From positions 1 through 64,000 of the forward strand of contig JAVKIP010000004.1 in assembly GCA_031459385.1 (NCBI GenBank): 64,000 bases of DNA, given 5' to 3'. This document shows positions 3,076 to 21,580 of this stretch, in pieces (position 1 is the first letter of the stretch; the number at the start of each line of letters is the position of its first letter). The notes under the pieces are model-generated. The model was not told the origin of the DNA, ran no database searches, and was given only the letters and a program-made list of their open reading frames with translations. A program made the translations under genes and the position numbers. The stretch is from Candidatus Fervidifonticultor secundus. Lineage in GTDB: Bacteria > Sysuimicrobiota > Sysuimicrobiia > Sysuimicrobiales > Humicultoraceae.

Positions 3076-3112
3076 TGTTCAGTACCTCGAACCCTGTTCG
3101 ACAGGTCGAACA
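3076..3112. promoter_or_regulatory. Tandem GTTC-N8-GAAC palindromes, probable IclR operator
   Basis: Perfect TGTTCGAC-AG-GTCGAACA at 3095-3112 overlapping the iclR ATG; weaker copy GTTC-AGTACCTC-GAAC at 3077-3092. Confidence 0.7.
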
Positions 3113-4005
3113 TGCCACGTCTCCGGGCACAGGCCGCCACCTCGCGGCGCAGGCCGCGCACGGTCCCCGCCGTGGAGCGCGCCGTGCGCGTGCTGCGGGC
3201 GCTGGCCGCCGACGGCGCCGCGCCGCGCCTCTCCGACCTCGGTCGCACGCTGGGCCTGAGCAAGAGCACGCTCTCGGACCTGCTGGCCACCCTTGCGTCC
3301 CACGGCCTCGTCGAGCGCGACGGCGACTCCCAGGGCTACCGCCTGGGACCGACGCTGCTCGAACTGGGCAGCGCGGCGCTGCGCCATCTCGACGTGGCCC
3401 AGCTCGCCCGGCCGTATCTCGCGCGGCTGCGCGACGCCATCGGCGAGACCGCGGTGCTCCACGTCCCGGCCGACGACGCGGCCCTCATCGTGGCGCGCGC
3501 CGAGTCCCACCACGATCTCATGGTGGCGGCCCCGCTCGGCCACCGGCTGCCGCCGCTGGCCGGCGCGGTGGCCAAGGTGCTGCTGGCCGACCGGCCGGAG
3601 GCCGACGTGGTGGCGCGGCTGCGCAGTCGGCTGCCGGCCTTCACACCGAAGAGCATCACCGCCCCGGGGCGCTACGTGCAGGAGCTGCGGCGGGTGCGCC
3701 GGCTGGGCTACGCGGTCGACGACGAGGAGTACCTGCCGGGCGTGCGCGCGGTCTCGGCGCCGGTGCGCGACGCGCGCGGGCGCGTGGTGGCCACGCTGAC
3801 GGTCGTCGGGTCGAGCGCGCGGCTGCCCCGCGGTCGTCTCGGCGCGGTCGCCGACGCGGTGGTGGCTGCCGCCACGGCGCTGTCGCGCCGCCTCGGGGCG
3901 CCGGCCGATGCGCCACCGCCGACCGGCGCGGGGCCGGGGGCCGGCGCGGGCAGACCCGCTGGCGGGCGCGCGGCGCTGCCGGCCAGGCGCTCCGCAGGAG
4001 GCTAG
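3112..4005 (+). CDS. IclR family transcriptional regulator
   Basis: 'VPAVERAVRVL', HTH 'LGLSKSTLSDLLATL', C-terminal 'GYAVDDEEYLPGVRAVSAPV'. Confidence 0.92.
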   Translation: MPRLRAQAATSRRRPRTVPAVERAVRVLRALAADGAAPRLSDLGRTLGLSKSTLSDLLATLASHGLVERDGDSQGYRLGPTLLELGSAALRHLDVAQLARPYLARLRDAIGETAVLHVPADDAALIVARAESHHDLMVAAPLGHRLPPLAGAVAKVLLADRPEADVVARLRSRLPAFTPKSITAPGRYVQELRRVRRLGYAVDDEEYLPGVRAVSAPVRDARGRVVATLTVVGSSARLPRGRLGAVADAVVAAATALSRRLGAPADAPPPTGAGPGAGAGRPAGGRAALPARRSAGG

Positions 4006-4007
4006 AG

Positions 4008-4508
4008 ATGCCCAAGACCCTGGTCACGCTGCGGGTCAATGGCGAGGTGCACGAGGTCGCCGTCCCGGTGCACAAGACGCTGCTGGAGGTCCTGCGCGAG
4101 GACCTGCTGCTCACCGGCACCAAGCACGGGTGCGAGCTGGGCGAGTGCGGCACGTGCACGGTGCTGGTGGACGGCGAGCCCTGGCTGTCGTGCCTGACCC
4201 TCCCGGTCGAGGTCGAAGGCCGCGAGATCCTGACGGTGGAGGGCCTGGCGCAAGACGGCCGGCCCCATCCGCTGCAGACCACGTTCGCCGACCTGGGCGC
4301 CGCGCAGTGCGGGTATTGCACGCCCGGCATCCTGATGACCGCCAGGGCGCTGCTCGACGCCACCCCGCAGCCCACCCGCGCCGAGATCGCGCAGGCGCTG
4401 GCGGGCAACCTCTGCCGGTGCACGGGCTACGTGAAGATCTTCGAGGCCGTGGAACTGGCGGCGCACCGGATGGCGACCGCGCGCGGCGGCGCCGAGGGGG
4501 GCGCATAG
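4008..4508 (+). CDS. hcrC: 2x[2Fe-2S] subunit of a xanthine oxidase-family enzyme (4-hydroxybenzoyl-CoA reductase gamma-like)
   Basis: 'GTKHGCELGECGTCTV', 'QCGYCTPG', 'GNLCRCTGY'. Confidence 0.8.
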   Translation: MPKTLVTLRVNGEVHEVAVPVHKTLLEVLREDLLLTGTKHGCELGECGTCTVLVDGEPWLSCLTLPVEVEGREILTVEGLAQDGRPHPLQTTFADLGAAQCGYCTPGILMTARALLDATPQPTRAEIAQALAGNLCRCTGYVKIFEAVELAAHRMATARGGAEGGA

Positions 4509-4509
4509 G

Positions 4510-6897
4510 ATGGCTCACGACTTTTCCATCATCGGCCGCCCGCTGCCGCGGGTCGATGGGCCGGCCAAGGCCGCCGGGCAGACCCGCTTCGCCGACGACC
4601 TGCACCTGCCCCGCATGCTCTACGGCCGCCTGCTGCGCAGCGTGCACGCCCACGCGCGCATCGTGCGGATCGACACCAGCCGCGCTCGGGCGCTGCCGGG
4701 GGTGCTGGCGGTGCTCACCGGGGCCGACCTGCCCGTGAAGTTCGGCATCCTGCCCGTCAGCCAGGACGAGCACGCGCTGTGCGTGGACAGGGTGCGGTTC
4801 GTCGGGGACCCGGTGGCGGCGGTGGCCGCGGTCGACGAGGAGACCGCGGAGCGGGCGCTGGAGCTGATCGACGTGGAGTACGACCCGCTCCCGGCGATCA
4901 TGACCATCGAGGACGCCCTGCGGCGCGACGACGTGCGCATCCACGACTACGGCGACGGACCGGCCAACGTCCACAAGATGGTGGCCCTCGAGTTCGGCGA
5001 CGTGGAGGAGGGCTTCCGCGAGGCCGCCTACGTCTGCGAGGATGTGTTCTACTTCGAGGGCAGCACGCACCTGCCCATGGAGCAGCACGCGGCCGTGGCG
5101 TCGTACGAGGCCGACGGTAAGCTCACGGTCTGGTCGGCGACCCAGACTCCGCACTACGTCCACCGTGCCTTAGCGAAGGTCCTGGAGTACCCGCCCAGCC
5201 GCATCCGTGTCATCGCCACGCCCGTGGGCGGCGGGTTCGGCGGCAAGTCCGACCCCTTCTCGCACGAGATCGTCGCGGCCCGGCTGGCGATGCTGACCGG
5301 CCGGCCGGTCAAGATCACCTGCACCCGCGAGGAGGTCTTCTACATCCACCGGGGGCGGCATCCGGTGCTGATGTGGGTGAAGACCGGCTTCAGCCGCGAC
5401 GGCCGCATCACCGCCATGCACTTCAAGTCGTTCCTCGACGGCGGCGCGTACGGCTCCTACGGTGTGGCCACTACCTACTACACGGGTGCCCTGCAGCCCA
5501 CGACCTACCGCATCCCGCGCTACAGGTTCGAGGGGCTGCGCGTCTTCACCAACAAGCCACCGTGCGGACCCAAGCGCGGCCACGGCACGCCGCAGCCGCG
5601 CTTCGCGCTCGAGTGTCACCTGGATAAGGCCGCCGCGGCCCTGGGGCTCGATCCGGTCGAGCTGCGTCGGCGGAACCTGGTCGAGCCGCACTCTATGACC
5701 GTCAACCACCTGCGCATCACCAGCTGCGGCCTGCGGGAGTGCATCGACAGGGTCGTGGAGGCCTCGGGATACCTGGCCCGCCGCGGGCGGCTGCCCGCGG
5801 GCAGGGGGCTGGGCTTCGCCGTCAGCGCCTACCTCTGCGGCGCCGGCCTGCCGATCTACTGGAACGAGATGCCCCAGTCGGAGGTCCAGATCAAGATCGA
5901 CCGCGGCGGTGGGGTCACCGTCTACTCCATGGCCATCGACATCGGCCAGGGCTCGGACTCGGTGCTGGCCTCCACGGTGGCGGAGGTGCTGGGCATCGAG
6001 CCCGCCGACGTCGCCCTGGTCACCGCCGACACCGACCTGACGCCCATCGACCTGGGCTCGTACTCGAGCCGGGTGACGTTCATGGCCGGCAACGCGGCCC
6101 TGGAGGCCGCGCAGAAGATGCGCGACCTGGTCTTCGCGGCCGTGGCGGAGAAGCTGGAGGTGCCCGCCGAGTTGCTGGCGGCCCGGGGCCGCCGCATCTT
6201 CAACCGCGAGAAGCCCGACATGGGGGTCGACTGGCCTGAGGCCGTGCGCCTGGCCGAGGCGCGATGGGGCCTGCTGCTCACCTCGGGGTCGTACCGGGCG
6301 CCGAAGCTGGCCGGGCCCTACAAGGGGTCGGGCGTGGGGCCGTCGCCGGCGTACTCGTACACGGCGTGCGTGGTCGAGGTGACCTGCGACGCCGAGACCG
6401 GCTGGGTCACCGTCGACCGCGTGTGGATCGCCCACGACATCGGCCGCGCGATCAACCCGCTCTTGGTCGAGGGCCAGGTCGAGGGCAGCGTCTACATGGC
6501 CCTGGGCGAGGCGCTCATGGAAGAACAGGTCTTCCGCCGCGGCGTGCACAAGTTCCCGTCGATGCTGGAGTACAAGAGCCCTACGATACTGGAGACGCCC
6601 CAGATCCACACGTTCCTGGTGGAGACGGTCGACCCCGAGGGACCGTTCGGCGCCAAGGAGGCCGGGCAGGGGCCGCTGCTGCCCGTGATTCCCGCCGTGG
6701 CTAATGCCGTGGCTGATGCGCTGGGGGTGCGGATCGACGAGGTCCCGATCACGCCCGACAAGGTGCTGGCCGCGCTGGCCGACCGGCGCAAGGGCGGGCC
6801 CGGCCGCGTGGGGCCCTCGGGTGTGCCCGCCGTGCGGTTCAAAGATCCCATTCGCGTCGAGCCGCCGGCGGGCTGGCAGCGGGTGACCGCACCATGA
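4510..6897 (+). CDS. hcrA: Molybdopterin-binding subunit (4-hydroxybenzoyl-CoA reductase alpha-like)
   Basis: XDH-family motifs 'GGGFGGK', 'DIGQGS', 'DLGSYSSRVTFMAGNA', 'GPFGAKE'; C-A-B gene order. Confidence 0.78.
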   Translation: MAHDFSIIGRPLPRVDGPAKAAGQTRFADDLHLPRMLYGRLLRSVHAHARIVRIDTSRARALPGVLAVLTGADLPVKFGILPVSQDEHALCVDRVRFVGDPVAAVAAVDEETAERALELIDVEYDPLPAIMTIEDALRRDDVRIHDYGDGPANVHKMVALEFGDVEEGFREAAYVCEDVFYFEGSTHLPMEQHAAVASYEADGKLTVWSATQTPHYVHRALAKVLEYPPSRIRVIATPVGGGFGGKSDPFSHEIVAARLAMLTGRPVKITCTREEVFYIHRGRHPVLMWVKTGFSRDGRITAMHFKSFLDGGAYGSYGVATTYYTGALQPTTYRIPRYRFEGLRVFTNKPPCGPKRGHGTPQPRFALECHLDKAAAALGLDPVELRRRNLVEPHSMTVNHLRITSCGLRECIDRVVEASGYLARRGRLPAGRGLGFAVSAYLCGAGLPIYWNEMPQSEVQIKIDRGGGVTVYSMAIDIGQGSDSVLASTVAEVLGIEPADVALVTADTDLTPIDLGSYSSRVTFMAGNAALEAAQKMRDLVFAAVAEKLEVPAELLAARGRRIFNREKPDMGVDWPEAVRLAEARWGLLLTSGSYRAPKLAGPYKGSGVGPSPAYSYTACVVEVTCDAETGWVTVDRVWIAHDIGRAINPLLVEGQVEGSVYMALGEALMEEQVFRRGVHKFPSMLEYKSPTILETPQIHTFLVETVDPEGPFGAKEAGQGPLLPVIPAVANAVADALGVRIDEVPITPDKVLAALADRRKGGPGRVGPSGVPAVRFKDPIRVEPPAGWQRVTAP

Positions 6898-7904
6898 TGC
6901 GGCTGCCCCCGTTCGCCTACCTGGCGCCGCGGACGCTGGACGACGCCGTACGCCTGCTGGCCGACCACGGGCCCGACGCCATGCCCGTGGCCGGCGGCAC
7001 CGACCTCTACCCGAACATGAAGCGCCGCCAGTGCCAGCCGAAGGTGCTGGTCGGCCTGCGGGGCCTGCGCGACCTGCAGGGGGTCGCCCCAGATGCCGGC
7101 GGGCTGCGGGTCGGCGCCGGGGTCGTGCTGCGGCGCTTCCTCGAGCACCCGGCGGTCGTGCAGCGGTACCCGATCCTGGCTCGCGCCGCGGCCACGATCT
7201 CGAACCCGCAGATCCGCTGCATGGGCACGGTCGGCGGCAACCTGCTGGTCGACACGCGGTGCAACTACTACAACATGCCGTACTGGTGGCGGCGGGCCAT
7301 CAATTTTTGCATGAAGAAGGATGGCGACGTCTGCTGGGTGGCACCCGGCGGCCACCGCTGCTGGGCGGTCTCGTCGTCGGACCTTGCCCCGGTGATGGTC
7401 GCCCTCGACGCGCGGGTCCGCCTGGTGGGCGCCGGCGGCGAGCGCACGGTGGCGGCCGCCGACCTCTACCGCGACGACGGCATCGCCTACCTGGCCAAGG
7501 CGCCCGACGAGGTGCTGGTCGAGGCGCTCGTGCCGCCCGCCGACGGCCTGCGCGCCACCTACTGGAAGCTGCGCCGCCGCGGTGCCATCGACTTCCCCAT
7601 CCTGGGGGTCGCCGCGGCGGTGCGGCTCGAGCCTGACGGCACGTGTGGCCACGCCCGGGTGGTGCTGGGCGCCGTGGCCTCGCAGCCGCTGCGCAGCCCG
7701 GCGGCCGAGCGGCTGCTGCTGGGCCAGCGTCTCACCCCCGAGGTGATCGACGCGGCGGCCGAGGCGGCCTGGAAGCCGTCGAAACCCCTGGACAACACCG
7801 ACCTGACCCTGGGCTACCGGAAGGCAATGGTGCGGGTGTACGTGCGGCGCGCCCTGCGCGAGCTGGCCGGGCTGCCGTCGGACGGCGCACCGCCGCAGGT
7901 GTAG
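6894..7904 (+). CDS. hcrB: FAD-binding subunit with [4Fe-4S] insertion (4-hydroxybenzoyl-CoA reductase beta-like)
   Basis: 'AGGTDL', 'TVGGN', plus 4-Cys insert DTRC-NYYN...FC-MKKDGDVC-WVAPGGHRC characteristic of HcrB. Confidence 0.82.
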   Translation: MMRLPPFAYLAPRTLDDAVRLLADHGPDAMPVAGGTDLYPNMKRRQCQPKVLVGLRGLRDLQGVAPDAGGLRVGAGVVLRRFLEHPAVVQRYPILARAAATISNPQIRCMGTVGGNLLVDTRCNYYNMPYWWRRAINFCMKKDGDVCWVAPGGHRCWAVSSSDLAPVMVALDARVRLVGAGGERTVAAADLYRDDGIAYLAKAPDEVLVEALVPPADGLRATYWKLRRRGAIDFPILGVAAAVRLEPDGTCGHARVVLGAVASQPLRSPAAERLLLGQRLTPEVIDAAAEAAWKPSKPLDNTDLTLGYRKAMVRVYVRRALRELAGLPSDGAPPQV

Positions 7905-7923
7905 GAGGCGCTCGTGGGCCAGG

Positions 7924-7964: not shown

Positions 7965-8065
7965 ACACCGCCAGCCAATCGGGGCGCCTGAGAGGATGTC
8001 CGCGCGGCGAACCGAAGATTCCTGACGCCGTCACGCGACTGGTCGAGGGGAAGGAGGGGCGCACC

Positions 8066-9160
8066 ATGGGCGCACCGTATCGGGCTGACCACGTCGGCAG
8101 TTTCCTGCGTCCCCCCGAACTGCTGGAGGCCCGGGCGCAGGGCGCGGACCGGGAGCACCTGCGCGAGCTGGAGGACCGGCACATCCTGCGCGTGCTGGTG
8201 CGGCAGCAGGAGCTGGGCTTCGAGGTGTTCACCGACGGCGAGTTCCGCCGCCGCAACTTCATGAGCGACCTGGTCGAGGCCGTCGAGGGCTTCGACCTTC
8301 ACGACGAGATCGGCCGGCCCTGGAAGGGCACCGGGACCGCCGTGGCGCCGGCCAGCGTCACCGGCATCGTCACCGCGAAGCTGCGCCAGGTGCGGCGCAT
8401 GACCGCGCACGAGGTGGCGTTCATGCGGGCGCACTGCCCGGGCGCCATCAAGATCACACTGCCCAGCGCGAACCAGTTCCCCGCCATCGCGTTCAAGCGC
8501 GGGGTGACCGACCGCGTCTACCCCGACCACTCGGCGCTGCTGTGGGACATCGTCCCCGTGGTGCAGGCCGAGATCCAGGCGCTGCTGGCCGACGGGGTCC
8601 ACTACATCCAGGTCGACGCGCCGCGCTACAGCTACTACGTCGACCCCAGGTGGCGGGCCTACATCCGGAACGAAGTAGGGATGGAGCCCGAGGCCGCTCT
8701 GGAAGAGGCGATCCGCGCCGACAACACCTGCCTGGAGGGCGCGCGCGGGCGGGGCGCGGTGATCGGCTTCCACCTGTGCCGCGGCAACAACCGCAGCCAG
8801 TGGTACGCCGAGGGCGGCTACGACGCCATCGCCGAGCGCCTCTTCGGCGGCCTGCAGGTCGACCGCTTCCTGCTCGAGTACGACGACGAGCGCTCGGGCA
8901 CGTTCGAGCCGCTGCGGTTCGTCCCTGCCGACAAGACCGTGGTGCTCGGGCTGGTGAGCACCAAGCGGCCCCAGCTCGAATCCAAAGCCACGCTGCTGCG
9001 GCGCATTGAAGAGGCCGCGCGCTACGTGCCGCTCGACCGGCTGGCGATGAGCCCGCAGTGCGGCTTTGCCTCCGTGATGGAAGGCAACCTGCTCTCCGAG
9101 GACGACCAGTGGGCGAAGCTCCGCCTGGTGGTGGAGACGGCGCGCGAGGTCTGGGGCTAG
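8066..9160 (+). CDS. Cobalamin-independent methionine synthase II family protein (MetE catalytic core only, YxjH/MesD-like)
   Basis: RBS AAGGAGG; 'DHVGSFLRP', 'TDGEFRR', Zn ligands 'HLCRGN', 'LEYD', 'SPQCGFAS'. Confidence 0.85.
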   Translation: MGAPYRADHVGSFLRPPELLEARAQGADREHLRELEDRHILRVLVRQQELGFEVFTDGEFRRRNFMSDLVEAVEGFDLHDEIGRPWKGTGTAVAPASVTGIVTAKLRQVRRMTAHEVAFMRAHCPGAIKITLPSANQFPAIAFKRGVTDRVYPDHSALLWDIVPVVQAEIQALLADGVHYIQVDAPRYSYYVDPRWRAYIRNEVGMEPEAALEEAIRADNTCLEGARGRGAVIGFHLCRGNNRSQWYAEGGYDAIAERLFGGLQVDRFLLEYDDERSGTFEPLRFVPADKTVVLGLVSTKRPQLESKATLLRRIEEAARYVPLDRLAMSPQCGFASVMEGNLLSEDDQWAKLRLVVETAREVWG

Positions 9161-9168
9161 CGGCCGCG

Positions 9169-10500
9169 ATGGGCACCCGCAGCGCCCCGGCGGAGGTGCC
9201 GTTCTTCCAGCGCGAGGTGGAGACACTGGAGCGGGGCGCACTGCGGGCACTGCAGCTGGAACGCCTGCGCCTGCTGCTGGCCGAGGTGGCTGCCGCCAAC
9301 AGGTTCTACCGGCACAAGTGGCAGGCCGCCGGTGCCGGGGACGTGGCCGGGCTGCGTACGCTGGCCGAGCTGCGGCGGCTGCCCTTCACCACCAAGCAGG
9401 AGCTCCTCGCCGATCAGGAGGCCCATCCGCCGTTCGGAACAGTGCTTACCTACCCGGTCGAGCGGTACACCCGCTTGCACATGACGTCCGGCACCACGGG
9501 CCGGCCGCTGCGCTGGCTGGACACGCCCGAGTCGTGGGAGTGGTGGTGCCGCTGCTGGGGCTTCGTCTACCGCGCGGCCGGTATCGGCCCGGCCGACACT
9601 GTCTTCTTCCCCTTCTCGTTCGGGCCGTTCATCGGGTTCTGGGCCGGCTTCGACGGCGCCGTGCGCCTGGGCGCCCTGGCCATCCCGGGCGGCGGTCAGG
9701 ACTCGGCGCTGCGTCTGCGCACGATGCGCGAGGTCGGCGCCACCGTCCTGGTGTGCACGCCCTCGTACGCGCTGCGCCTGGCCCAGGTGGCCCACGAGCA
9801 GGGGTGGGACCCAGCCACGCTGCCGGTGCGCGTGACGATCCACGCAGGAGAACCGGGCGCCAGCATCCCGGCCACGAAGGCCCGCATCGCCCAGGCCTGG
9901 GGCGCCCGCTGCGTCGACCACTACGGGATGACGGAAGTCGGCGCGGTGGGGTTCGAATGCACGGCGGGCGGGCTGCATGTCAACGAGACCGAGTTCGTCG
10001 CCGAAGTGCTGGATCCGCGGACCGGCGAGGTGGCCGACGAGGGCGAGGGGGAACTGGTCGTGACCAACCTGGGCCGCGTCGGCTCGCCGGTGATCCGGTA
10101 CCGCACCGGCGACCGGGTGCGCCTGGTGACCGCGCCGTGCCCCTGCGGCCGCACGCTTGCCCGCCTGGACGGTGGCGTGCTCGGCCGCGTGGACGACATG
10201 CTCGTCATCCGGGGGGTCAACGTCTTCCCCAGTGCCATCGAGGAGATCGTGCGCCGCCACCCCGAGGTGGACGAGTTCCGCCTCGAGGTCTACCGACAGG
10301 ACGAGATGGACCAGCTGCGGGTGCTGCTGGAGATCGACGAGGGGCGCCACGCGCCCGCCACCGCCGACCGGATCGTCGCGGCGGTCGCTGACGGCGTACG
10401 CCAGACCCTGGGGCTGCGGGTCGACGCGCGGGCCGTCCCGGCCGGCACGCTGCCCCGCTTCGAGCTGAAGGCCCGGCGGGTCGTGCGCGTCGCGACATGA
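9169..10500 (+). CDS. paaK: Phenylacetate-CoA ligase family aryl-CoA ligase
   Basis: 'LPFTTK', 'TSGTTG', 'AGEPG', 'DHYGMTE', 'IRYRTGD', 'GRVDDMLVIRGVNVFPS'. Confidence 0.8.
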   Translation: MGTRSAPAEVPFFQREVETLERGALRALQLERLRLLLAEVAAANRFYRHKWQAAGAGDVAGLRTLAELRRLPFTTKQELLADQEAHPPFGTVLTYPVERYTRLHMTSGTTGRPLRWLDTPESWEWWCRCWGFVYRAAGIGPADTVFFPFSFGPFIGFWAGFDGAVRLGALAIPGGGQDSALRLRTMREVGATVLVCTPSYALRLAQVAHEQGWDPATLPVRVTIHAGEPGASIPATKARIAQAWGARCVDHYGMTEVGAVGFECTAGGLHVNETEFVAEVLDPRTGEVADEGEGELVVTNLGRVGSPVIRYRTGDRVRLVTAPCPCGRTLARLDGGVLGRVDDMLVIRGVNVFPSAIEEIVRRHPEVDEFRLEVYRQDEMDQLRVLLEIDEGRHAPATADRIVAAVADGVRQTLGLRVDARAVPAGTLPRFELKARRVVRVAT

Positions 10501-11830: not shown

Positions 11831-11901
11831 TGCCCGCCGGCTTCCAGGGGCGGCGGCCGTCGACCGCCGCTCCGGCCGCGGCCTGAGGAGCTGCGGCGCG
11901 C

Positions 11902-14223: not shown

Positions 14224-15206
14224 GCGCCTCCGACCCGGGCGTCGGACGCGCGGCCCGCGCCGCGGGTGTGGGCGCGGTGGTGCTGGCGCTGGCCGGCCTG
14301 CCGCTCGCCACGCAGCGCACCGACGTGCTGAACCTGGCGTTCCTCGTCTTCCTCTATGCGGCGCTGGCCCAGAGCTGGAACCTCCTTGCGGGGTTCGCGG
14401 GCCAGATCAACCTGGGGCACGCCGCGTTCTTCGGCACCGGCGCGTTCGTGATGCGCCACCTCTGGGTCGCGGGCACCCACCCCTACCTCGGCCTGCTGGC
14501 GGGCGGGCTGGCGGCCAGCGCCTTCAGCCTCGTGATCGGCCTGCCCGCGTTCCGGCTGCGGGGCGCGTACTTCGCCATCGGCACCCTGGGCCTCGCCGAG
14601 ATCCTGCGCATCACGGTGGGAAACGTGCTGCCCGTGGTCTCGACGCTGCCCGCGCCGTTCATCGCAGGGTACTCCCTGGCGCACCGCTACTACCTGGCGC
14701 TGGGTCTGCTGGCCGCCACGGTGGCGGTGGTGGCCTGGCTGGTCCGCTCGCCGCTGGGGCTCGGCCTGGTGGCGCTGCGCGAGGACGAGGACGCCGCCGC
14801 GGCCACAGGCGTCGACGTCCTCCGGCACAAGCTGCTGGCGCTGGTCGCAAGCACCGGTCTGGGCGGGGTCGCCGGGGCCGTCTTCGCCTTCTACCACATC
14901 AGCTACTACCACCAGATGCCCTTCGGGCCCGGCTGGACCTTCGACGCGCTGCTCATCGCGTTCATCGGCGGCGTGGGGACCCTGACCGGCCCGCTGGTGG
15001 GCGCGCTCTTCTACGTGCTGGTCCGCGAGGTGCTGGCCCGGTCGCTCGTGGAGCTGCACCTGCTGATCTTCGGCCTGCTGTTCGTGGTGGTGGTGCTGGC
15101 GCTGCCGGGCGGGATCGTCGAGGTGGCGGCGCGGGTGCGTGGGGCCGTGGCCGTACGGTGGGCGCGAGCCCCGGCGCCGGCGGCCCGGCCGGGAGGCCCC
15201 GATTGA
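14220..15206 (+). CDS. livM: ABC permease, LivM-like
   Basis: 'SWNLLAGFAGQINLGHAAFFG', 'LRGAYFAIGTL', 'LPGG'. Confidence 0.88.
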   Translation: MSASDPGVGRAARAAGVGAVVLALAGLPLATQRTDVLNLAFLVFLYAALAQSWNLLAGFAGQINLGHAAFFGTGAFVMRHLWVAGTHPYLGLLAGGLAASAFSLVIGLPAFRLRGAYFAIGTLGLAEILRITVGNVLPVVSTLPAPFIAGYSLAHRYYLALGLLAATVAVVAWLVRSPLGLGLVALREDEDAAAATGVDVLRHKLLALVASTGLGGVAGAVFAFYHISYYHQMPFGPGWTFDALLIAFIGGVGTLTGPLVGALFYVLVREVLARSLVELHLLIFGLLFVVVVLALPGGIVEVAARVRGAVAVRWARAPAPAARPGGPD

Positions 15207-15231: not shown

Positions 15232-15293
15232 AGGAGGAGGACACCCGGGCAGGCCGCGCGGCGCGGTCGCCGGTGGGAGGAGACGGGGGAACT

Positions 15294-16229
15294 GTGACCG
15301 CGGTGACCGAGGAGGCCCTGCGCGCACGCCTCGAGCGCGGCGAGCTGGTGGAGGGACCGGCGTACGCCACGTCGACGTACATCGAGGCGCTCAAGCGCAC
15401 GCTCGTCGTCTCGGCCGACACCGAGTTGATCAGCGCGCCGGCCTACCTGCGGGCCGCGCGCGACGCGCCCAGCATCAACTCGTACATCTCGGCCATCGGC
15501 ATCATCCAGGACGAGCTGGGCCACGCCCACATCGCCTACCGGATGCTGCGCGATCTCGGGGTGGACACCGACGCGCTGATCTACCAGCGCGACCCGGCGC
15601 AGTTCAAGCACCCGTACGCGTTCGACGTGGCGCTGGAGACGTGGACGGAGCTGGTGGTGGCCAACGCGTTCTACGACCGTGCGGGGTTTGTGCTGCTTGG
15701 CGACATCTACCGGCACACGACCTACGGGCCGTGGAAACGCGCGCTGGCCAAGGTGGACCGCGAGGAGAACTTCCACCTGCGCCACGGCGAGAAGTGGATG
15801 CGCACCCTGGCCGCCGCCCCACAGACGAAGGCCGAGTTGCAGCGGGCGGTGGACTGGATGTTCCTGCTGACCGTGGAGTGGTTCGGGTTGCCCGATGACC
15901 TCAAGCGCCACAAAGACCAGATCGGCTACGGGCTCAAGGGCTACACCAACGACCAGCTCCGCCAGCAGTGGCTGTCCACGGCGGTGCCGCTGTGCCAGGA
16001 ACTGGGTCTGGACGTCCCGGCGCGCTACGACGCGGCCGCAGGGCAGTGGGTGGTGACCTGCCCGTTCCCGGCCCGCTTCGACGCCGACCGCAAGCGTTGG
16101 CTGCTGGAGGAGGGCCCCATCACCTGGGACGAGGTGCTGGCGCGCTGGCGCCAGCGGGGCCCCGCCAACCGCGAACTCGTCGGTGAGATTCAGCGGGGCT
16201 ACCAGCAGCTGCGGCGCGTGGACGCCTGA
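15294..16229 (+). CDS. paaA: PaaA-like diiron aryl-CoA epoxidase catalytic subunit
   Basis: 'ADTE', 'IQDELGH', 'YGPWKRALAKVDREENFH' (two ExxH motifs), 'TNDQLRQQW'. Confidence 0.78.
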   Translation: MTAVTEEALRARLERGELVEGPAYATSTYIEALKRTLVVSADTELISAPAYLRAARDAPSINSYISAIGIIQDELGHAHIAYRMLRDLGVDTDALIYQRDPAQFKHPYAFDVALETWTELVVANAFYDRAGFVLLGDIYRHTTYGPWKRALAKVDREENFHLRHGEKWMRTLAAAPQTKAELQRAVDWMFLLTVEWFGLPDDLKRHKDQIGYGLKGYTNDQLRQQWLSTAVPLCQELGLDVPARYDAAAGQWVVTCPFPARFDADRKRWLLEEGPITWDEVLARWRQRGPANRELVGEIQRGYQQLRRVDA

Positions 16230-16236: not shown

Positions 16237-16653
16237 ATGCGCGCGCCAGGCCAGCCCGGAAGCGCACCGGCGCCGGCGGGGCACCCGGCCCCGGCGACCA
16301 CACCGCCCCCCGGTCCGGCCCTGGCCGCCGGCCCCGCCCCGGCCGCCGTGTGCACGGCAGAGCAGGTAATCGCGGCGCTGCGTGAGGTACTCGACCCCGA
16401 ATATCCCGTCAGCGTGGTGGACCTGGGCCTGATCCGCGGCGTGGCCGTGCAGGGCGGCGAGGTGCGCGTGCGGCTGACGTTCACGTCCATGGGCTGCCCG
16501 TGCATGGAGATGATCCAGGACGACATCGTCGCGCGGCTGCGGCGGCTGCCCGGCGTGGACCGGGTGACGCTGGAAGTCGTCTGGGAGCCCTGGACCCGCG
16601 CGCACATCAGCGAGGAAGGGTGGCGCCGGCTGCGCGGGGTCGGCGTGGTGTGA
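16237..16653 (+). CDS. paaD: PaaD-like/DUF59 metal-sulfur cluster assembly factor (N-terminal domain only)
   Basis: 'LREVLDPEYPVSVVDLGLI', 'TSMGCPC', 'WEPWT'. Confidence 0.8.
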   Translation: MRAPGQPGSAPAPAGHPAPATTPPPGPALAAGPAPAAVCTAEQVIAALREVLDPEYPVSVVDLGLIRGVAVQGGEVRVRLTFTSMGCPCMEMIQDDIVARLRRLPGVDRVTLEVVWEPWTRAHISEEGWRRLRGVGVV

Positions 16654-16850
16654 TGGAGGGAGAGGAGTACTACGAGGTGTTCGCCGCGCGCGCGGAGGCC
16701 GGCGAGCCGCTGCGCAACGTCGGCACCGTGCGGGCGACCTCGCCGCGCGAGGCGGCCATCTTCGCGCACAAGCTCTACGACGAGTGGCGCTGGCGGGCGA
16801 TGTTCGTCGTGCCCCGCCGCGCCCTCGTCACGGTGATCCGGCCGCAATGA
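16653..16850 (+). CDS. paaB: PaaB-like small subunit 1
   Basis: MEGEEYYEVFAAR...VGTVRA..A...A..LYDE...MFVVPR; TGATG coupling to the upstream gene. Confidence 0.7.
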   Translation: MEGEEYYEVFAARAEAGEPLRNVGTVRATSPREAAIFAHKLYDEWRWRAMFVVPRRALVTVIRPQ

Positions 16851-17056
16851 CCGCCCCCACCCGCTTCCTGGTGCTGGCCCGGCGCAGGTACCCGGAGGCC
16901 CTGACCTACCAGGGGACGCTGGAGGTCGCCGCAGGTGGCGACCCCGCGGTGGCGGCGACCACACGGTTCGGAGCCGACTGGCTCGAGTTGGTCCTGGCAC
17001 CGGAAGTCGCGGTGCACTGGGTGATCGCCCCCCAGGCCCTGGAGTCCACGGCATGA
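16847..17056 (+). CDS. Second small PaaB-like protein
   Basis: MTAPTRFLVLARRRYPEALTYQGTLEV...WLELVLAPE has the same pattern as the preceding ORF; ATGA overlaps on both sides. Confidence 0.6.
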   Translation: MTAPTRFLVLARRRYPEALTYQGTLEVAAGGDPAVAATTRFGADWLELVLAPEVAVHWVIAPQALESTA

Positions 17057-17817
17057 GCCCTGCCGTGACCGCGAGCCACGAGCGGGCGCTGCCGGCGCTG
17101 GTGAACCTGATCGTGGTCCTGGCCGACACCAAGTACTTCCTGGGCCGGCGCATCTCGGAGTGGGCGCCGGGCGCGCCGTTCCTGGAGGCCTCGGTAGCGT
17201 GCGCGGCGATCGCACAGGAGGACCTGGGGCACTCGCGCGCCATCTACCCCCTGCTGGAGGACCTGCCGTACCCCAACCGGCCCCAGCCGCTGGAGCGCGA
17301 GACCGACCGCGAACGCCGCTACTGCGTGCGCTTCCTCGACGCGCCGCACCCCACGTGGTCGCACGTGGTGGCCACCTGCGCGCTGGTGGACACCGCGGTC
17401 ACGACGATGTTCGGCGCGCTGGTGGGCTCGCGCTACGAGGCGCTGGCCAGCCGGGTGCGCCGCGCGCTGGACGAGGAGCGCGCGCACCTGGGCTACGCCG
17501 AGAGCCTGGTGCGCCGGCTGGCTGCCAGCGCGCAGGGGGCCGCGGCGCTCCAGGCGCGCGTGGACGAGGCGCTGCCCGAGATGCTGTGCTGGTTCGGGCC
17601 GGCCGGGGAGGCCGGCGTCGAGGCGCTGCGGGCCGAAGGCTACCTGAGCGCGGTCAACGACGCGCTTCGCCAGGCCTACCTGCAGCGCGTGGCGCCGTTG
17701 CTGCTGGAGGTGGGCGTGCGCCTGCCCGTGCGGTGGAACCTGGAGGACGGCACCTGGGAGGTGCCGCCCCTGCCGTGGGAGCGATGGAACCCGATCCAAC
17801 GCCGGCTGGAAGGATAA
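17053..17817 (+). CDS. paaC: PaaC-like epoxidase structural subunit
   Basis: 'LADTKYFLGRRISEW..GAPFLE', 'QEDLGHSR', 'DEERAH'. Confidence 0.78.
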   Translation: MSPAVTASHERALPALVNLIVVLADTKYFLGRRISEWAPGAPFLEASVACAAIAQEDLGHSRAIYPLLEDLPYPNRPQPLERETDRERRYCVRFLDAPHPTWSHVVATCALVDTAVTTMFGALVGSRYEALASRVRRALDEERAHLGYAESLVRRLAASAQGAAALQARVDEALPEMLCWFGPAGEAGVEALRAEGYLSAVNDALRQAYLQRVAPLLLEVGVRLPVRWNLEDGTWEVPPLPWERWNPIQRRLEG

Positions 17818-17987
17818 GCGGCGCCGCCGCGCCGGCGGGCCGGGGCCCGGACGCGGGCACGCCGCCCCGCTGCCCCTGGTGCGGGTCGGACGACGTCGAG
17901 CGCGTCGGGGCCTTTGCGGCCCAGCTGATGTCCGCGCAGTACCTATGCCGGGCGTGCAGGAGCCCGTTCGAGCGCATCCGTAAGTGA
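17784..17987 (+). CDS. Stand-alone PaaD-type zinc ribbon protein
   Basis: 'RCPWCGS...F......YLCRACRSPFERIR' matches the PaaD C-terminal CxxC..CxxC ribbon; start uncertain. Confidence 0.68.
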   Translation: MEPDPTPAGRISGAAAPAGRGPDAGTPPRCPWCGSDDVERVGAFAAQLMSAQYLCRACRSPFERIRK

Positions 17988-17998
17988 GGGGGGAGAGC

Positions 17999-19450
17999 AT
18001 GGCGTTACTGGTCATCAACGGCGAGGCCGTGCCGGCCAAGAGCGGCGCGCAGATGCCGGTGCTGAACCCCGCCACCGAGGAGGTGGTCGACGTCGTGCCC
18101 AGAGCCGGGCCCGACGACGTGGACGCCGCGGTGGCCGCGGCCCGGCGCGCGTTCGACGCCTGGGCGAAGGCCGATCCCGACGAGCGCGCGCACAAGATCC
18201 GCGAGGGGCTGGCGAAGGTGCGCGCGCACGCGCAGGAGGTGGCCGACCTCCTGGTGCGCGAGCAGGGCAAGCCGCTCCACGAGGCGACCGGCGAGCTCAC
18301 CCACTTCCTTCACGGCATGGAGTTCTACGCCGACCTGGCCAGCAAGCTGCGCGGCGCCTATGCGCCGCTGCCCTCGGCGCTGGGCCGGGCCTACGGGCTG
18401 GTCATCCGCCGGCCGGTGGGCGTCTGCGCGGCCATCGTGCCGTGGAACTTCCCGCTGACGCTCATGGGGACGAAGATCGGCCCGGCGCTGGCCACGGGCA
18501 ACACGGTGGTCGTCAAGCCCGCCAGCACCACGCCGCTCGCGACCCTGAGGGTCATCGGCCTGATGAACGAGGCGGGCCTGCCGCCGGGCGTGCTCAACGT
18601 CGTGACCGGCCCGGGCCGCGCCGTCGGCGAGGCGCTGGCGAGCCACGCCGACGTGCGCCGTGTGGCCTTCACCGGCCAGACCGCCACGGGCCGGCGCATC
18701 ATGGAGCTGGCCGGGCCCGCGTTCAAGCGCATCACCCTGGAACTGGGCGGCTCCGACCCGGTCATCGTCTGCTCGGACGCCGACCTGGACAAGGCGGTGC
18801 GGGGCGTGCTGATCGGCCGCTTCTGGAACTGCGGGCAGGCGTGCCTGGCGGCCAAGCGCGTCTACGTCTTCGCTGACGTCTACGACGCCTTCATGGAGAA
18901 GCTCCTGGCGGGCGTGGCGCGCTATGAGCCCGGCGAGGGGTGGGTGAAGGCCGAGCGGCCGAAGATTCGCGTCGGGCCGCTGCACACGGCCGAGCAGCGC
19001 CAGGAGATCGCCGCGCAGCTCGACGACGCGGTGCGCCGCGGCGCGACGGTCGCCTACGGTGGGACGGTCCCCGAGGGCCGCGGCAGGGGCTACTTCTTCA
19101 CCCCGACGGTGCTCACCGACGCGCCGCACGACAGCCGCGTGGTCCAGGAGGAGACGTTCGGACCGCTGCTGCCGGTGTTCAAGGTCGCGGGCATCGACGA
19201 GGCGATCCGCCTGGCCAACGACTCGGTCTACGGCCTGGGGTCGTCGATCTGGACCTACAACATCAAGTGGATCCACCGGGCGGCGCAGGAGCTCGACGCC
19301 GGCATGACCTGGGTGAACCAGCTGCACTACGGGTACGACGAGCTGCCGTTCGGCGGCGTGAAGGCGTCGGGGATCGGCCGTGAGCACGGCCCCGAGGCGA
19401 TGGACTACTACGTCGAATTCAAGTCGGTGGTGGTGGGCGACCTGGAGTGA
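17999..19450 (+). CDS. Aldehyde dehydrogenase
   Basis: 'PWNFP', 'FTG', 'LELGG', 'GQAC', 'EETFGP', 'PFGGVKASG'. Confidence 0.92.
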   Translation: MALLVINGEAVPAKSGAQMPVLNPATEEVVDVVPRAGPDDVDAAVAAARRAFDAWAKADPDERAHKIREGLAKVRAHAQEVADLLVREQGKPLHEATGELTHFLHGMEFYADLASKLRGAYAPLPSALGRAYGLVIRRPVGVCAAIVPWNFPLTLMGTKIGPALATGNTVVVKPASTTPLATLRVIGLMNEAGLPPGVLNVVTGPGRAVGEALASHADVRRVAFTGQTATGRRIMELAGPAFKRITLELGGSDPVIVCSDADLDKAVRGVLIGRFWNCGQACLAAKRVYVFADVYDAFMEKLLAGVARYEPGEGWVKAERPKIRVGPLHTAEQRQEIAAQLDDAVRRGATVAYGGTVPEGRGRGYFFTPTVLTDAPHDSRVVQEETFGPLLPVFKVAGIDEAIRLANDSVYGLGSSIWTYNIKWIHRAAQELDAGMTWVNQLHYGYDELPFGGVKASGIGREHGPEAMDYYVEFKSVVVGDLE

Positions 19451-19535
19451 CGCCGGGCTCACCCAGCGCCGCCGGCCGCGGCCGGTGCCGGGGCGGCAGC
19501 CTACCGCCGCGCACAGTTGATTCCAGGAGGCGACG

Positions 19536-20312
19536 ATGGCCGTCGAGTACAGCCGGGAAGGTGCCCTCGGGTTCATCACGCTGGACCGTCCGCCCGCCAA
19601 CTCGTACGAGATCACGTTCATGGAGGAGTTGGGGCGCGCCATCGAGGCGGCGGCCGCCGACCCCGCGGGTCGGGCAGTGATCGTGCGCAGCGCCTCGGAG
19701 AAGTTCTTCTGCGCCGGCGCCGACATCAAGGCGTTCAGTGAGAACACGCCCGAGCAGAACATGGAGATGTGCCGGCTCGCCCACCGCACCCTGGGCCGCA
19801 TCGCGGCCGTGCCCAAGGTCTTCATCGCGCAGATCGCCGGACACGCGCTGGGCGGGGGCCTGGAGATCGCGCTCGCCTGCGACCTCCGCTTCGGCGCCGA
19901 GGGCAGCTACCAGCTCGGCGTACCCGAGGTGACGCTGGGCCTGCTGCCCGGCAACGGCGGGACCCAGCGCCTGCCGCGGCTGATCGGGTGGAGCCGGGCG
20001 CTCGACCTGATGGTCACCGGCCGGCGCGTGGGACCCGCCGAGGCCCACGCGCTCGGCATCCTCGACCGCCTAGTCCCGGCCGACCGCCTCGACGCCGAGA
20101 CCCGCGCCTATGCCCAGGTGCTGGCCGACGGATCGGCGTCGGCGATCGGTGCTATCAAGCTGGCCGTGCACCAGGGCCGCGAGCGCGGGCTGGACGACGG
20201 CCTGCGTCTCGAGCGCGAGCTGCTGGACGGCCTCTTCCGCAGCCCTGACGGGCAGGAGGGCGTGCGCGCGTTCGTCGAGAAGCGCAGGCCGCAGTTCGCC
20301 CGCAGCGCGTGA
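19536..20312 (+). CDS. Enoyl-CoA hydratase/isomerase (crotonase) family protein
   Basis: 'FCAGADI', '[13 protein letters not shown]', '[17 protein letters not shown]'. Confidence 0.92.
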
Positions 20313-21580
20313 CCGGCGGGGACGTCTCCGGCTTCGCCCGCAACCTCCGCGACCTGCCGCACGCGCTCGGGTCCGGCGGCGTGGCGAACGCGGCGGTGGC
20401 CTGGCTGTGGAGCCTGAGCCCGCTGCTGATCACGCTGGCCGCAGCGCAGCAGGCCCGCCTGCCCGAGGCGCGCGTCGTCTCCTGGATCGCCGCCATCCAG
20501 ATCACCGGCGGCGCGATGAGCATCGTGCTGAGCCTGCGCTACCGGCAGCCCATCGTCGGCGCGTTCACCATCCCGGGCGTGGTGCTGGTCGGTGCCGCCC
20601 TGCGCCATCTGCCGTTCGAGGAGGTCGTGGGCGCGTACTGGCTGACCGGCGCCCTGGTCGGCCTCCTCGGCGTCTCCGGCCTGGTAGGCCGCGTCACGGC
20701 GTGGCTGCCGCTGCCCATCATGATGGGCATGGTGGCCGGTGTGCTGCTGCCGTTCGTCGGCGCCATCGTCCGCGGGCTGCAGCAGGCCCCGGTGCTGGCC
20801 GGGGTGACCGTGGTGGCGTTCTTCGCCGCCTGGGTGGTGCCCGGCCTGCGCCGCCTGCCGCCGGTGCTGGTGGCCGTCGCCACCGGGCTGGTCGCGGCCA
20901 CGTGGCTGGGCGGGGCCGACTGGCGTGTGCCGGTCTCGCTCCTCGGGCGTCCTGCCGTGGTCGCGCCCGCGTTCTCGTACGTCGCCGCGGCCGACCTGGT
21001 CGTGCCCCTCGTGCTCATGGTGATCGGTGTACAGAACGTGCAGGGGATCGCCGTGCTCACCGCTGCGGGCTACCGGCCGCCCGTCTCGACCCTGACCACC
21101 GCCTCCGGGCTGGGATCGCTCGTCTCCGCGGTCTTCGGCGGCCATTCGGCGTGCATCGCGGGGCCGTCGACCGCCATCGTCGCCGGGCCGTCCTCCGGGC
21201 CCAGGGACGGCCGCTACGCCGCCAGCGTGCTGCTGGGCCTGCTGTGGATCGGCACCGGGCTGCTCGCGCCGGCGGTAACTGCCATCACCCGCCTGGTGCC
21301 CAGGGCGCTGGTGGACGTGCTCGGCGGCCTGGCGCTGCTCGGTCCCATGGCGCAGTTCTTCCAGCAGGCGTTCGGCGGGCGGTTCGCGCTGGGCGCCCTG
21401 GTAGCGTTTGTGGTCACGACCTCGGGCCTGGTGGTCTTTCGCATCGCCGCGCCGTTCTGGGCGCTGGTGGCGGGAGTGGGCGCGTCGCTGCTGGTGGAGC
21501 GGGCAGACTTCGCGGTGCGGGGCGCGGGGCACCTGCCCGCGCCAGCCGCGGCAGCCCCGCGCGGCGACAGGCAACGGTAG
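20309..21580 (+). CDS. benE: Benzoate/H+ symporter BenE family transporter
   Basis: 'LRYRQPIVGAFTIPG', 'MVAGVLLPF', 'QNVQGIAVL.AAGY.PP', 'APFWALVAG'. Confidence 0.85.
   Translation: MTGGDVSGFARNLRDLPHALGSGGVANAAVAWLWSLSPLLITLAAAQQARLPEARVVSWIAAIQITGGAMSIVLSLRYRQPIVGAFTIPGVVLVGAALRHLPFEEVVGAYWLTGALVGLLGVSGLVGRVTAWLPLPIMMGMVAGVLLPFVGAIVRGLQQAPVLAGVTVVAFFAAWVVPGLRRLPPVLVAVATGLVAATWLGGADWRVPVSLLGRPAVVAPAFSYVAAADLVVPLVLMVIGVQNVQGIAVLTAAGYRPPVSTLTTASGLGSLVSAVFGGHSACIAGPSTAIVAGPSSGPRDGRYAASVLLGLLWIGTGLLAPAVTAITRLVPRALVDVLGGLALLGPMAQFFQQAFGGRFALGALVAFVVTTSGLVVFRIAAPFWALVAGVGASLLVERADFAVRGAGHLPAPAAAAPRGDRQR

Follow-up and report, generated by a model that had tools for sequence, protein, structure and literature searches.

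We studied a cluster of 20 genes in a 64,000-nt stretch of DNA (hereafter the window) from Candidatus Fervidifonticultor secundus, contig JAVKIP010000004.1. The genes lie at positions 3112-21580, all on the + strand, and combine homologues of the 4-hydroxybenzoyl-coenzyme A (CoA) reductase genes hcrCAB with a module related to the paa genes of phenylacetyl-CoA epoxidase. Frame analysis of G+C content at third codon positions (GC3) and searches with Pfam and NCBIfam models showed uninterrupted coding over the whole interval, and bore out the gene list, order and common orientation given in an initial annotation of the same DNA. Once start codons were refined, start and stop codons overlapped by 4 nt at nine junctions and by more at one (PaaC/zinc ribbon), and two junctions were gaps of 1-2 nt. 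Neither flank is related to the cluster, with glycoside hydrolases on the upstream side and, downstream, a convergent adenine-deaminase-like gene. It is near certain that the operon is, in its general nature, an aryl-CoA catabolic unit. The window contig has 72% G+C and the host genome consists of 3.3 Mb in 59 contigs (97.6% complete, 5.5% contamination); negative results for the host genome are to be read with this completeness in mind and do not prove absence. Hot-spring metagenome runs contain the window nearly whole and may be its source. The genes of the operon, with model scores, are as follows:

3112..4005, + strand: IclR-family regulator, 2 nt upstream of hcrC (PF01614 128.7 bits, PF09339 49.8 bits)
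4008..4508, + strand: HcrC-like [2Fe-2S] small subunit (Fer2_2 107.3, Fer2 41.2; TIGR03193 185.4 bits, cut-off 257.8)
4510..6897, + strand: HcrA-like molybdopterin subunit with Gln720 (TIGR03194 894.2 bits, cut-off 994.55)
6894..7904, + strand: HcrB-like FAD subunit with [4Fe-4S] insertion loop, Cys123, 139, 147 and 156 (TIGR03195 284.5 bits, cut-off 404.55)
8066..9160, + strand: MetE-core-like protein, cobalamin-independent methionine synthase family (PF01717 54.9; NF005085 284.5, cut-off 313; 1ypx_A 225.7 bits)
9169..10500, + strand: divergent PaaK-family aryl-CoA ligase (TIGR02155 247.8 bits, cut-off 646.3; PaaK1 2y27 213.6 bits)
10616..15206, + strand: Liv-type ATP-binding cassette (ABC) importer of five genes (Peripla_BP_6 181.3 bits, ABC_tran, BPD_transp_2): binding protein 10616-11830, ATPases 11902-12633 and 12626-13348, permeases 13345-14223 and 14220-15206
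15273..16229, + strand: PaaA-like diiron oxygenase subunit (PF05138 195.1; TIGR02156 106.4 bits, cut-off 280)
16237..16653, + strand: PaaD N-terminal domain, FeS_assembly_P (PF01883 78.9; TIGR02159 61.9 bits, cut-off 108.15)
16653..16850, + strand: short PaaB-like protein 1, 65 aa (profile comparison only)
16847..17056, + strand: short PaaB-like protein 2, 69 aa (profile comparison only)
17053..17817, + strand: PaaC-like subunit (PF05138 125.9; TIGR02158 86.4 bits, cut-off 133.35)
17784..17987, + strand: PaaD-type zinc ribbon in a small gene of its own (PF23451 41.8 bits, cut-off 27)
17984..19450, + strand: NAD(P)-aldehyde dehydrogenase (PF00171 528.4 bits)
19536..20312, + strand: single-domain crotonase-family protein, 258 aa (PF00378 186.7 bits)
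20309..21580, + strand: BenE-family benzoate/H+ symporter-like transporter (PF03594 228.7; TIGR00843 185.8 bits, cut-off 203.4)

The PaaA-like oxygenase module and its relatives

Relatives of the PaaA-like protein were found in 169 genomes, one genome per species being scanned, and the neighbourhoods of the best 80 (62-93% identity) were fetched, up to 10 kb on each side of the PaaA-like gene; their gene content was read from tblastn and family matches. These 80 loci came from metagenome-assembled genomes (MAGs) labelled as uncultured or as Armatimonadota, from Rubrobacter, Gaiellales/Thermoleophilia and other Actinomycetota, from many orders of Chloroflexota, and from Dormibacterota. Two of them belong to Rubrobacter isolate genomes, which are cultured carriers of the form with ligase and oxygenase.

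In searches against solved structures, the best match of the PaaA-like protein was E. coli PaaA (78 bits), in which the residues of the diiron motifs (E, DExxH, D and ExxH) are aligned and identical. No BoxB chain matched it at E<=1 among the solved chains. A canonical PaaA identity was considered and rejected: the 106.4 bits obtained with TIGR02156 compare with a cut-off of 280 and with 396.4 bits for the canonical PaaA of the host itself, and scores with this model are bimodal, 27 of 81 sampled Actinomycetota genomes giving 338-529 bits and five hits 108-124, with none between. A Box-type identity was rejected as well, on the lack of any TIGR03225 match in the genome and of any BoxB chain among the structural matches, and on a tree that sets BoxB apart as a distant outgroup. 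In this quick maximum-likelihood tree of 94 rows, from which five of the 80 loci were omitted (coverage below 93% or a stop codon), 75 PaaA-like sequences formed one clade (SH-aLRT support 96) and 15 canonical PaaA another (99), the long branches between the groups making the exact branching order uncertain. The initial annotation had proposed a Paa-type rather than a Box-type epoxidase and had suggested a phylogeny of the PaaA-like protein as a check. Tree, structural and model searches agree on a separate clade of the PaaA/PaaC family that is not Box-type.

The two small ORFs between the PaaD-like and PaaC-like genes (16653-16850 and 16847-17056) had no match in Pfam or NCBIfam. A profile built from 23 homologues of the first aligned with the canonical PaaB of the host (hhalign probability 87%, E 3.9e-6, 36 columns), and the profile of the second aligned with that of the first (96.3%, E 1.6e-9). 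The labels PaaB and PaaB' had been assigned before these comparisons; kinship is supported by the profiles but without a match to any library model, and the naming appears reasonable but not firm. PaaD is split into two genes, one for the N-terminal domain (16237-16653) and one for the zinc ribbon (17784-17987). The absence of paaE and of box and paaZ genes, also claimed at the outset, agreed with our searches: TIGR02160 (PaaE) had no match at E<=0.001 and TIGR03225 (BoxB) none at E<=0.01 across the whole host genome, and no MaoC/PaaZ domain was found in the 41 window ORFs to which the scan for paaZ was confined.

The operon shares with PaaABC(D)E of E. coli and Pseudomonas (PDB 3PVR) the A/C Pfam family, the diiron motifs, PaaD-type domains and, probably, small PaaB-like subunits. 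It differs in that the PaaA-like protein belongs to a separate clade, the putative PaaB is short and duplicated, PaaD is split and no PaaE was found in the genome; moreover, in most lineages the PaaA-like module stands with benzoate-type ligases and transporters and not with PaaK. With the Box pathway of Azoarcus/Aromatoleum evansii the likeness lies in the proposed logic (benzoate-CoA ligase, diiron oxygenase acting on a CoA thioester, hydrolysis by a crotonase, aldehyde dehydrogenase), whereas the window module has no detectable homology to BoxB, lacks BoxA and has a single-domain crotonase of 258 aa; BoxC is about twice that size.

Where at least 5 kb of sequence follows the PaaA-like gene (49 loci), tblastn detected the PaaD N-terminal domain and PaaC in all 49, PaaB-like 1 in 48, the zinc ribbon in 41, and the aldehyde dehydrogenase and the crotonase in 40 each; PaaB-like 2 was detected in 11. 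The aldehyde dehydrogenases were 49-93% identical to the window gene in the loci that carry one, and the nine loci without it belong to Ardenticatenia, Ktedonobacteria, Chloroflexia and Herpetosiphonaceae. Two of the genomes used in these neighbourhood tables are flagged as unpublished, namely G010 (loci L013 and L098, used also in the tree and for a 13.5-kb distance) and G055 (L062 and L112, tables). The same flag applies to G224, which is one of 35 Chloroflexota genomes discussed below as carrying both modules, and to G379, G396 and G425, which are among the 27 genomes with canonical PaaA. Dropping all of them alters no conclusion.

The genes next to the module offer hints on its substrate. 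A ligase of 520 aa of the benzoate-CoA ligase (BCL) type was present in 31 of the 80 loci and a PaaK-like ligase of the window type in eight, and never both in the same locus. Four BCL-type ligases were examined, and all exceeded the TIGR02262 cut-off of 375 (587, 633, 469 and 542 bits). Their best solved relative was the benzoate-CoA ligase of Burkholderia (461 bits), which belongs to the Box pathway, followed by an anthranilate-CoA ligase (459 bits). BCL-type loci usually also contained Amidohydro_2 (26 loci), PaaY-like (33) and TetR (30) genes, and BenE was found in eight of the 80 loci, across both ligase types. Of the four genomes in which the module is the only PaaA/C pair, three (G001, G002 and G004) had no PaaK-family match at E<=1e-40. 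Because the module adjoins BCL-family genes and BenE in genomes without a PaaK-family match, its sequence context suggests that the oxygenase acts on a substrate of the benzoyl type and not of the phenylacetyl type.

The module could instead be a variant epoxidase for phenylacetyl-CoA (or another arylacetyl-CoA) with a substitute for PaaZ in split form, sharing with an unrelated hydroxybenzoate feeder nothing but a genomic island. Its membership in the PaaA/PaaC family and the PaaK-family ligase, nearest to phenylacetate-CoA ligases, would agree with this, as would the PaaY-like gene, the TetR regulator and the two crotonases of the Rubrobacter-type clusters, which recall paa operons, and the fact that the module is the only PaaA/C pair in four of five other genomes examined. 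But the host and genome G005 have an additional, canonical PaaA over the cut-off (396 bits), TIGR02156 scores show no intermediates between the two groups, the three module genomes without a PaaK-family match have a BCL-family ligase beside the module, the window ligase ranks low among the PaaK paralogues of its own genome, and Hcr strongly co-occurs with the module. We consider a phenylacetyl-CoA epoxidase rather improbable. As to the canonical genes of the host, paaA (396 bits), paaB, paaC and paaD lie on the minus strand of another contig (C12:218415-221157; L089:9415-12157), isolated among housekeeping genes (fabD/G/F/H, acpP, rnc, ung, secDF) with no other paa genes nearby.

The Hcr-type enzyme, its ligase and their link to the oxygenase

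The three hcr-like genes encode an enzyme with the three-subunit architecture of the xanthine dehydrogenase (XDH) family (2Fe-2S, Mo and FAD subunits, by Pfam), the closest relative of which was the 4-hydroxybenzoyl-CoA reductase of Thauera. HcrA scored 894 bits with TIGR03194 as compared with 544.6 for the next NCBIfam family, XdhA, and among solved chains it aligned over its full length with 1rm6_A of Thauera (650 bits), the next PDB chain reaching 290. It also scored far over the 14 other XDH-family large-subunit matches of the host genome, the next of which had 528 bits. HcrB gave a gapless alignment to 1rm6_B (205 bits) through an insertion of ~40 residues, in which Cys123, 139, 147 and 156 all match a Thauera Cys; in the Thauera structure, these Cys reportedly coordinate an additional [4Fe-4S] cluster through which electrons pass towards Mo. 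We also considered whether the Mo enzyme is an ordinary hydroxylase of the xanthine or furoyl-CoA dehydrogenase kind, and set this aside because the [4Fe-4S] loop is present and no other model or chain scores nearly as high as those of Hcr and Thauera. The host genome holds fifteen matches to Hcr-alpha/XDH large-subunit models in its 3.3 Mb, some of them pieces of split genes, an unusually large number for a genome of this size.

HcrC, HcrA and HcrB all scored under the NCBIfam equivalog cut-offs (TIGR03193, TIGR03194 and TIGR03195), although TIGR03194 and TIGR03195 were still the top-scoring models for the alpha and beta subunits. Gln720 of HcrA aligned with the active-site Glu in all five solved relatives compared (1rm6_A, 3hrd_B, 8uem_A, 7dqx_A and 5g5h_C), and Gln is kept at this position in 17 further genomes. 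Glu is retained in the Ktedonobacteria-type HcrA branch (four genomes) and in two Chloroflexota Hcr that exceed the cut-off. By sequence comparison, the window HcrCAB is a distinct subfamily of the Hcr clade, and because this subfamily has Gln for the active-site Glu, its presumed reductive chemistry may differ in detail. Compared with HcrCAB of Thauera aromatica (PDB 1RM6/1SB3), the window genes have the same order (2Fe-2S, Mo, FAD), the four-Cys insertion in HcrB and the link to a ligase. They differ in scoring below the cut-offs, in Gln720 and in having a partner from the PaaK family rather than the benzoate-CoA ligase family; furthermore, the window host has a haem-copper oxidase, and its Hcr has an O2-dependent oxygenase as its partner instead of a benzoyl-CoA reductase operon. 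The hba cluster of Rhodopseudomonas palustris (HbaBCD) is linked to a Liv-type ABC transporter, as in the window.

The ligase of the window was the fifth-best of six PaaK paralogues in the host genome and fell short of the PaaK cut-off (247.8 against 646.3 bits). Its connection with Hcr was constant: HcrCAB adjoins the PaaK-like ligase in all five loci with upstream DNA (L009, L012, L028, L037 and L071), the other three loci with this ligase ending inside the ligase gene. Around matches to the HcrA model, 24 loci were fetched (three distant paralogues included), in 10 of which a PaaK-like ligase flanks Hcr, most of the others ending too early. An IclR gene was also found upstream of HcrC in loci L037, L071, L095-L100, L102, L109 and L111, and the order IclR-HcrC-HcrA-HcrB-ligase-PaaA is shared between the lineage of the window and Ardenticatenia, which belong to another phylum.

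A Hcr-clade gene was present in 26 of 79 genomes with the oxygenase module, with scores of 798-961 bits and one truncated hit of 704, and none was found at the threshold used for module carriers in 14 control genomes. Comparison of coordinates put Hcr 10-25 kb from the module, a little beyond the fetched neighbourhoods, in G003, G010, G012, G013, G016 and G029, a shared contig being assumed for G012, G013, G016 and G029. In an even sample of 301 Chloroflexota genomes, many of them incomplete MAGs, 35 had both Hcr and PaaA-like genes, nine Hcr only, 16 PaaA-like only and 241 neither (odds ratio 59, Fisher p 4e-25, uncorrected for shared ancestry). In eight of the 35 both modules were on one contig, within 16 kb in five genomes and ~1 Mb apart in three. 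BoxB was detected in three of the 301 genomes, none of which had PaaA-like or Hcr genes, as compared with 51 genomes with PaaA-like genes. The initial annotation had named conservation of the gene neighbourhood as a check of its proposal, and the hcr and paa-like genes are in fact co-conserved, adjacent in at least three lineages and strongly associated in Chloroflexota.

The Gln-type Hcr might also be a repair enzyme or another redox enzyme tied to aryl-CoA epoxidases, one that would, for instance, convert phenolic or epoxide side-products back to the arene. The change of the catalytic Glu to Gln in the window HcrA and in 17 further genomes speaks for such a role, but Hcr is nearly always accompanied by a ligase of its own and an IclR regulator, as expected of a pathway that feeds in a free acid, and in Ktedonobacteria-like genomes a Hcr of the Glu type is likewise found together with the oxygenase. 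We regard this explanation as very improbable.

Proposed route and other possible fates of benzoyl-CoA

Gene content, family relations, conserved residues and co-occurrence were observed directly, and from these we infer every substrate and reaction of the following route. A para-hydroxybenzoic acid, most likely 4-hydroxybenzoate, would be imported by the Liv-type ABC transporter and/or BenE, and the PaaK-family ligase, constantly adjacent to HcrCAB, would form its CoA thioester. The HcrCAB-type Mo/FAD/Fe-S enzyme would then remove the 4-hydroxyl group to give benzoyl-CoA, as suggested by its kinship with the Thauera enzyme and the [4Fe-4S] loop. The PaaE-less diiron oxygenase of PaaA/C/B/B'/D type would attack the ring of benzoyl-CoA with O2, a role to which the association with BCL ligases and BenE points. 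On the model of BoxC/BoxD, and of PaaZ or its split form, the crotonase would open the ring hydrolytically and the aldehyde dehydrogenase would oxidise the resulting aldehyde; beta-oxidation-like steps encoded elsewhere would follow. To a hybrid operon under IclR control that leads from 4-hydroxybenzoate through benzoyl-CoA to Paa-type epoxidation we give an even chance of being right. Seen in this way, the region would work like a merger of a peripheral anaerobic hba/hcr module with aerobic CoA-dependent ring opening of the Box/Paa kind.

The last enzymes of the route are generic by sequence. In NCBIfam the aldehyde dehydrogenase resembles general aminobutyraldehyde, betaine-aldehyde and succinate-semialdehyde dehydrogenases; the PaaN and BoxD models were absent among the best 25 of its 43 families, no search having been aimed at BoxD. 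Likewise, the BoxC model was absent among the best 25 of 73 families for the crotonase, no search having been aimed at BoxC. The crotonase may be a specific ring hydrolase, although sequence comparison yielded only generic hydratases. An 'oxepin-CoA hydrolase, alternative type' (NF046063) acting with a separate aldehyde dehydrogenase is reportedly known from work on bacteria that lack PaaZ. The window resembles this split substitute in having adjacent aldehyde dehydrogenase and crotonase genes downstream of a Paa-type oxygenase, but its crotonase scored 138 bits with NF046063, against a cut-off of 300, and its aldehyde dehydrogenase is of the general type.

Several observations weigh against the proposed route. 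To the sub-cut-off scores of all three Hcr subunits, the replacement of the active-site Glu and its retention in the two Chloroflexota Hcr that do exceed the cut-off, one has to add that the nearest solved relatives of the window ligase are phenylacetate-CoA ligases, that the best NCBIfam and PDB matches of the crotonase are ordinary enoyl-CoA hydratases, and that the window cluster lacks the second enoyl-CoA hydratase and the PaaY-like gene of the Rubrobacter-type clusters. Neither a reductase or ferredoxin for the oxygenase nor a low-potential electron donor for Hcr was found in the cluster or in four annotated loci with the whole module (L033, L068, L031 and L029). The co-occurrence statistic is uncorrected for shared ancestry, and in three of the eight Chloroflexota genomes with both modules on one contig the distance is ~1 Mb. 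Lastly, other sinks for benzoyl-CoA could exist. On contig C58 of the host (33000-39500, minus strand; L093:7134-13437) there are a BcrC-like gene (329 bits, cut-off 421), a BcrB-like gene (220 bits, cut-off 487) and a single activase gene, which could be a second sink, and in genome G003 hcr and the oxygenase module are separated by BcrCB-like genes, so that benzoyl-CoA may have a reductive sink. The pathway as first annotated is partly supported: co-conservation, the PaaA-like clade and the BCL/BenE context agree with it, and the sub-cut-off Hcr with Gln, the hydratase-like crotonase, the reductase not found and the BcrBC-like set limit the support.

The statement that no benzoyl-CoA reductase is present holds for the window, but not without qualification for the genome, given the sub-threshold set on C58. 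By its sequence, the BcrCB-like pair belongs to the benzoyl-CoA reductase/2-hydroxyacyl-CoA dehydratase family, as an uncharacterised representative. Its genes adjoin BbsB/BbsA-like thiolase genes, an SsuA/taurine-type ABC transporter and a short-chain dehydrogenase/reductase (SDR) gene. A bcr or box operon elsewhere had been named as a finding that would speak against the pathway; no BoxB was found in the genome, while the BcrBC-like set may represent the bcr case. Other searches of the host genome gave no PobA match at E<=1e-10, no gene of the benzoate-CoA ligase family over the cut-off (best 238 bits, cut-off 375) and no Oah gene over the cut-off (best 112 bits, cut-off 464), and a haem-copper oxidase COX1 gene with 510 bits.

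The benzoyl-CoA made by Hcr might be consumed under anoxia mainly by the BcrBC-like, ATP-dependent system of C58, with the oxygenase as a parallel branch for O2 or for another substrate and oxygen switching between the sinks. For this one can cite the BcrC-like (329 bits) and BcrB-like (220 bits) genes together with their activase, BbsAB-like thiolase and SDR genes; genome G003, where BcrCB-like and BadH-like genes are placed between hcrCAB and the oxygenase module; and genome G368, in which 17 kb separate Hcr from a BcrC-like gene and the search gave no PaaA-like gene. Set against these are the presence of BcrC-like genes in only four of the 21 genomes examined with Hcr and PaaA-like (three of nine with Hcr alone), the single activase instead of two, the lack of an Oah over the cut-off and of any component above its equivalog cut-off, and the arrangement in the window, where hcr and oxygenase genes form a single co-oriented series, closely spaced and overlapping at many start/stop junctions. 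A main sink of this kind seems to us improbable. In G003, 'Ca. Tepidifontimicrobium thermophilum', the genes form a 40-kb island (L138, C2:44500-64000, and L016) with the order: two UbiD-family genes (phenylphosphate-carboxylase/VdcC-like), hcrCAB, ligase, BcrCB-like, BadH-like, PaaH-like, PaaF-like, BCL ligase and the PaaA-like module. This layout fits benzoyl-CoA as a hub and suggests that a reductive branch is possible; the island may lead from phenol to benzoyl-CoA, with a reductive and an oxidative exit.

The same architecture could also serve other substrates, with protocatechuate converted to 3-hydroxybenzoyl-CoA, or vanillate or 4-methoxybenzoate used after demethylation by the MetE-like protein, or, alternatively, with the BCL-type clusters acting on anthranilate; the oxygenase would then attack a substituted benzoyl-CoA instead of benzoyl-CoA itself. 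The Hcr scores under the equivalog cut-offs and the Glu-to-Gln change would suit such a shift, and so would the recurrence of the MetE-like gene within the cluster of close relatives, the nearly equal scores of the BCL-type ligase with anthranilate-CoA (459) and benzoate-CoA ligase (461 bits), the Amidohydro_2 and adenine-deaminase-like genes (26 and nine of the 80 loci) and the HpaB-like gene that adjoins PaaA-like in four loci. Yet the most direct hints on the substrate are the BenE-family transporters and BCL-family genes, no other family comes nearly as close to HcrA as 4-hydroxybenzoyl-CoA reductase, and most Hcr-linked loci are without the MetE-like gene, found in three of the 80 loci. 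We hold these substrates to be unlikely as compared with the route from 4-hydroxybenzoate.

More broadly, and as a tentative proposal to which we give somewhat less than an even chance, the PaaA-like clade may be a third, hitherto unrecognised class of O2-dependent oxygenase attacking the benzoyl-CoA ring, Paa-type but PaaE-less, with an aldehyde dehydrogenase and a crotonase of its own, fed with phenolic acids by the Gln-type Hcr and the PaaK-like ligase, and replacing Box in Chloroflexota, in deep Actinomycetota (Rubrobacteria, Thermoleophilia/Gaiellales) and in uncultured phyla close to them. To our knowledge, Paa and Box are the only two established O2-dependent routes of ring opening on CoA thioesters. 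The presence of 4-hydroxybenzoyl-CoA reductase is taken to mark the anaerobic degradation of aromatics. By the score tests the region falls outside the Hcr, PaaABCDE and Box equivalog families, and the data define a discrete and widespread oxygenase clade, with a context pointing to benzoyl-type substrates, that is tightly coupled to a Hcr subfamily with an altered active site. The openly accessible literature that was searched, subscription-only papers lying outside the search, contained no report linking Hcr to a Paa-type oxygenase and none of a Paa-type benzoyl-CoA oxygenase; the link was not addressed in the matching passages of PMC13186573, PMC10803450 and bioRxiv 10.1101/2025.11.25.690425.

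Were the route correct, reductive dehydroxylation, held to be anaerobic, would be routine in the aerobic or microaerobic catabolism of lignin monomers in the lineages that carry the genes, and hcr genes in metagenomes, often scored as 'anaerobic benzoyl-CoA pathway', would have to be read differently. It would also mean a new enzyme specificity within the Paa family and would explain the use of lignin-derived phenolic acids at low oxygen by abundant Terrabacteria of soils and hot springs. The hypothesis on the oxygenase is directly testable because cultured Rubrobacter carriers exist.

Accessory genes of the cluster and its relatives

The Liv-type binding protein matched its best solved relative with 104 bits, a score uninformative on the ligand. 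Six metatranscriptome contigs (163-372 nt, no differences, depth 2-4), from a library that belongs to the study of the probable source sample, mapped to the operon, at 4455-4654 (hcrC/A), 6305-6474 (hcrA), 9021-9183 (metE-like/ligase), 9516-9887 (ligase), 11000-11181 (livK) and 19394-19575 (aldehyde dehydrogenase/crotonase). They were not counted as expression, because carry-over of DNA is possible and the contigs give no levels.

The MetE-like gene has an ATG start with AAGGAGG upstream. It follows hcrB in the window and in L009 (2693-3772), and is located between livK and livG in L011 (2202-3275) and L012 (5980-6696); it was present in three of the 80 loci and missing from the Ardenticatenia clusters. 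The gene behaves like a mobile accessory and, more speculatively, may take part in methyl transfer on methoxylated acids.

The gene convergent on benE is the following:

21588..23744, - strand: adenine-deaminase-like amidohydrolase, 718 aa (Adenine_deam_C 106.9, Amidohydro_1 61.3; TIGR01178 237 bits, cut-off 472.5)

Its homologues were found in nine of the 80 loci, including both Rubrobacter isolates, with 41-43% identity, and 81% in L009, the closest relative; the amidohydrolase may belong to the pathway. In four Gaiellaceae-type loci (L027, L031, L042 and L065) a flavin monooxygenase of the HpaB family (598 bits; HpaB-2 cut-off 885) was encoded directly upstream of PaaA-like. Note that L031 also has, nearby, a split pair of PaaZ-like aldehyde dehydrogenase and MaoC genes and genes for protocatechuate 3,4-dioxygenase.

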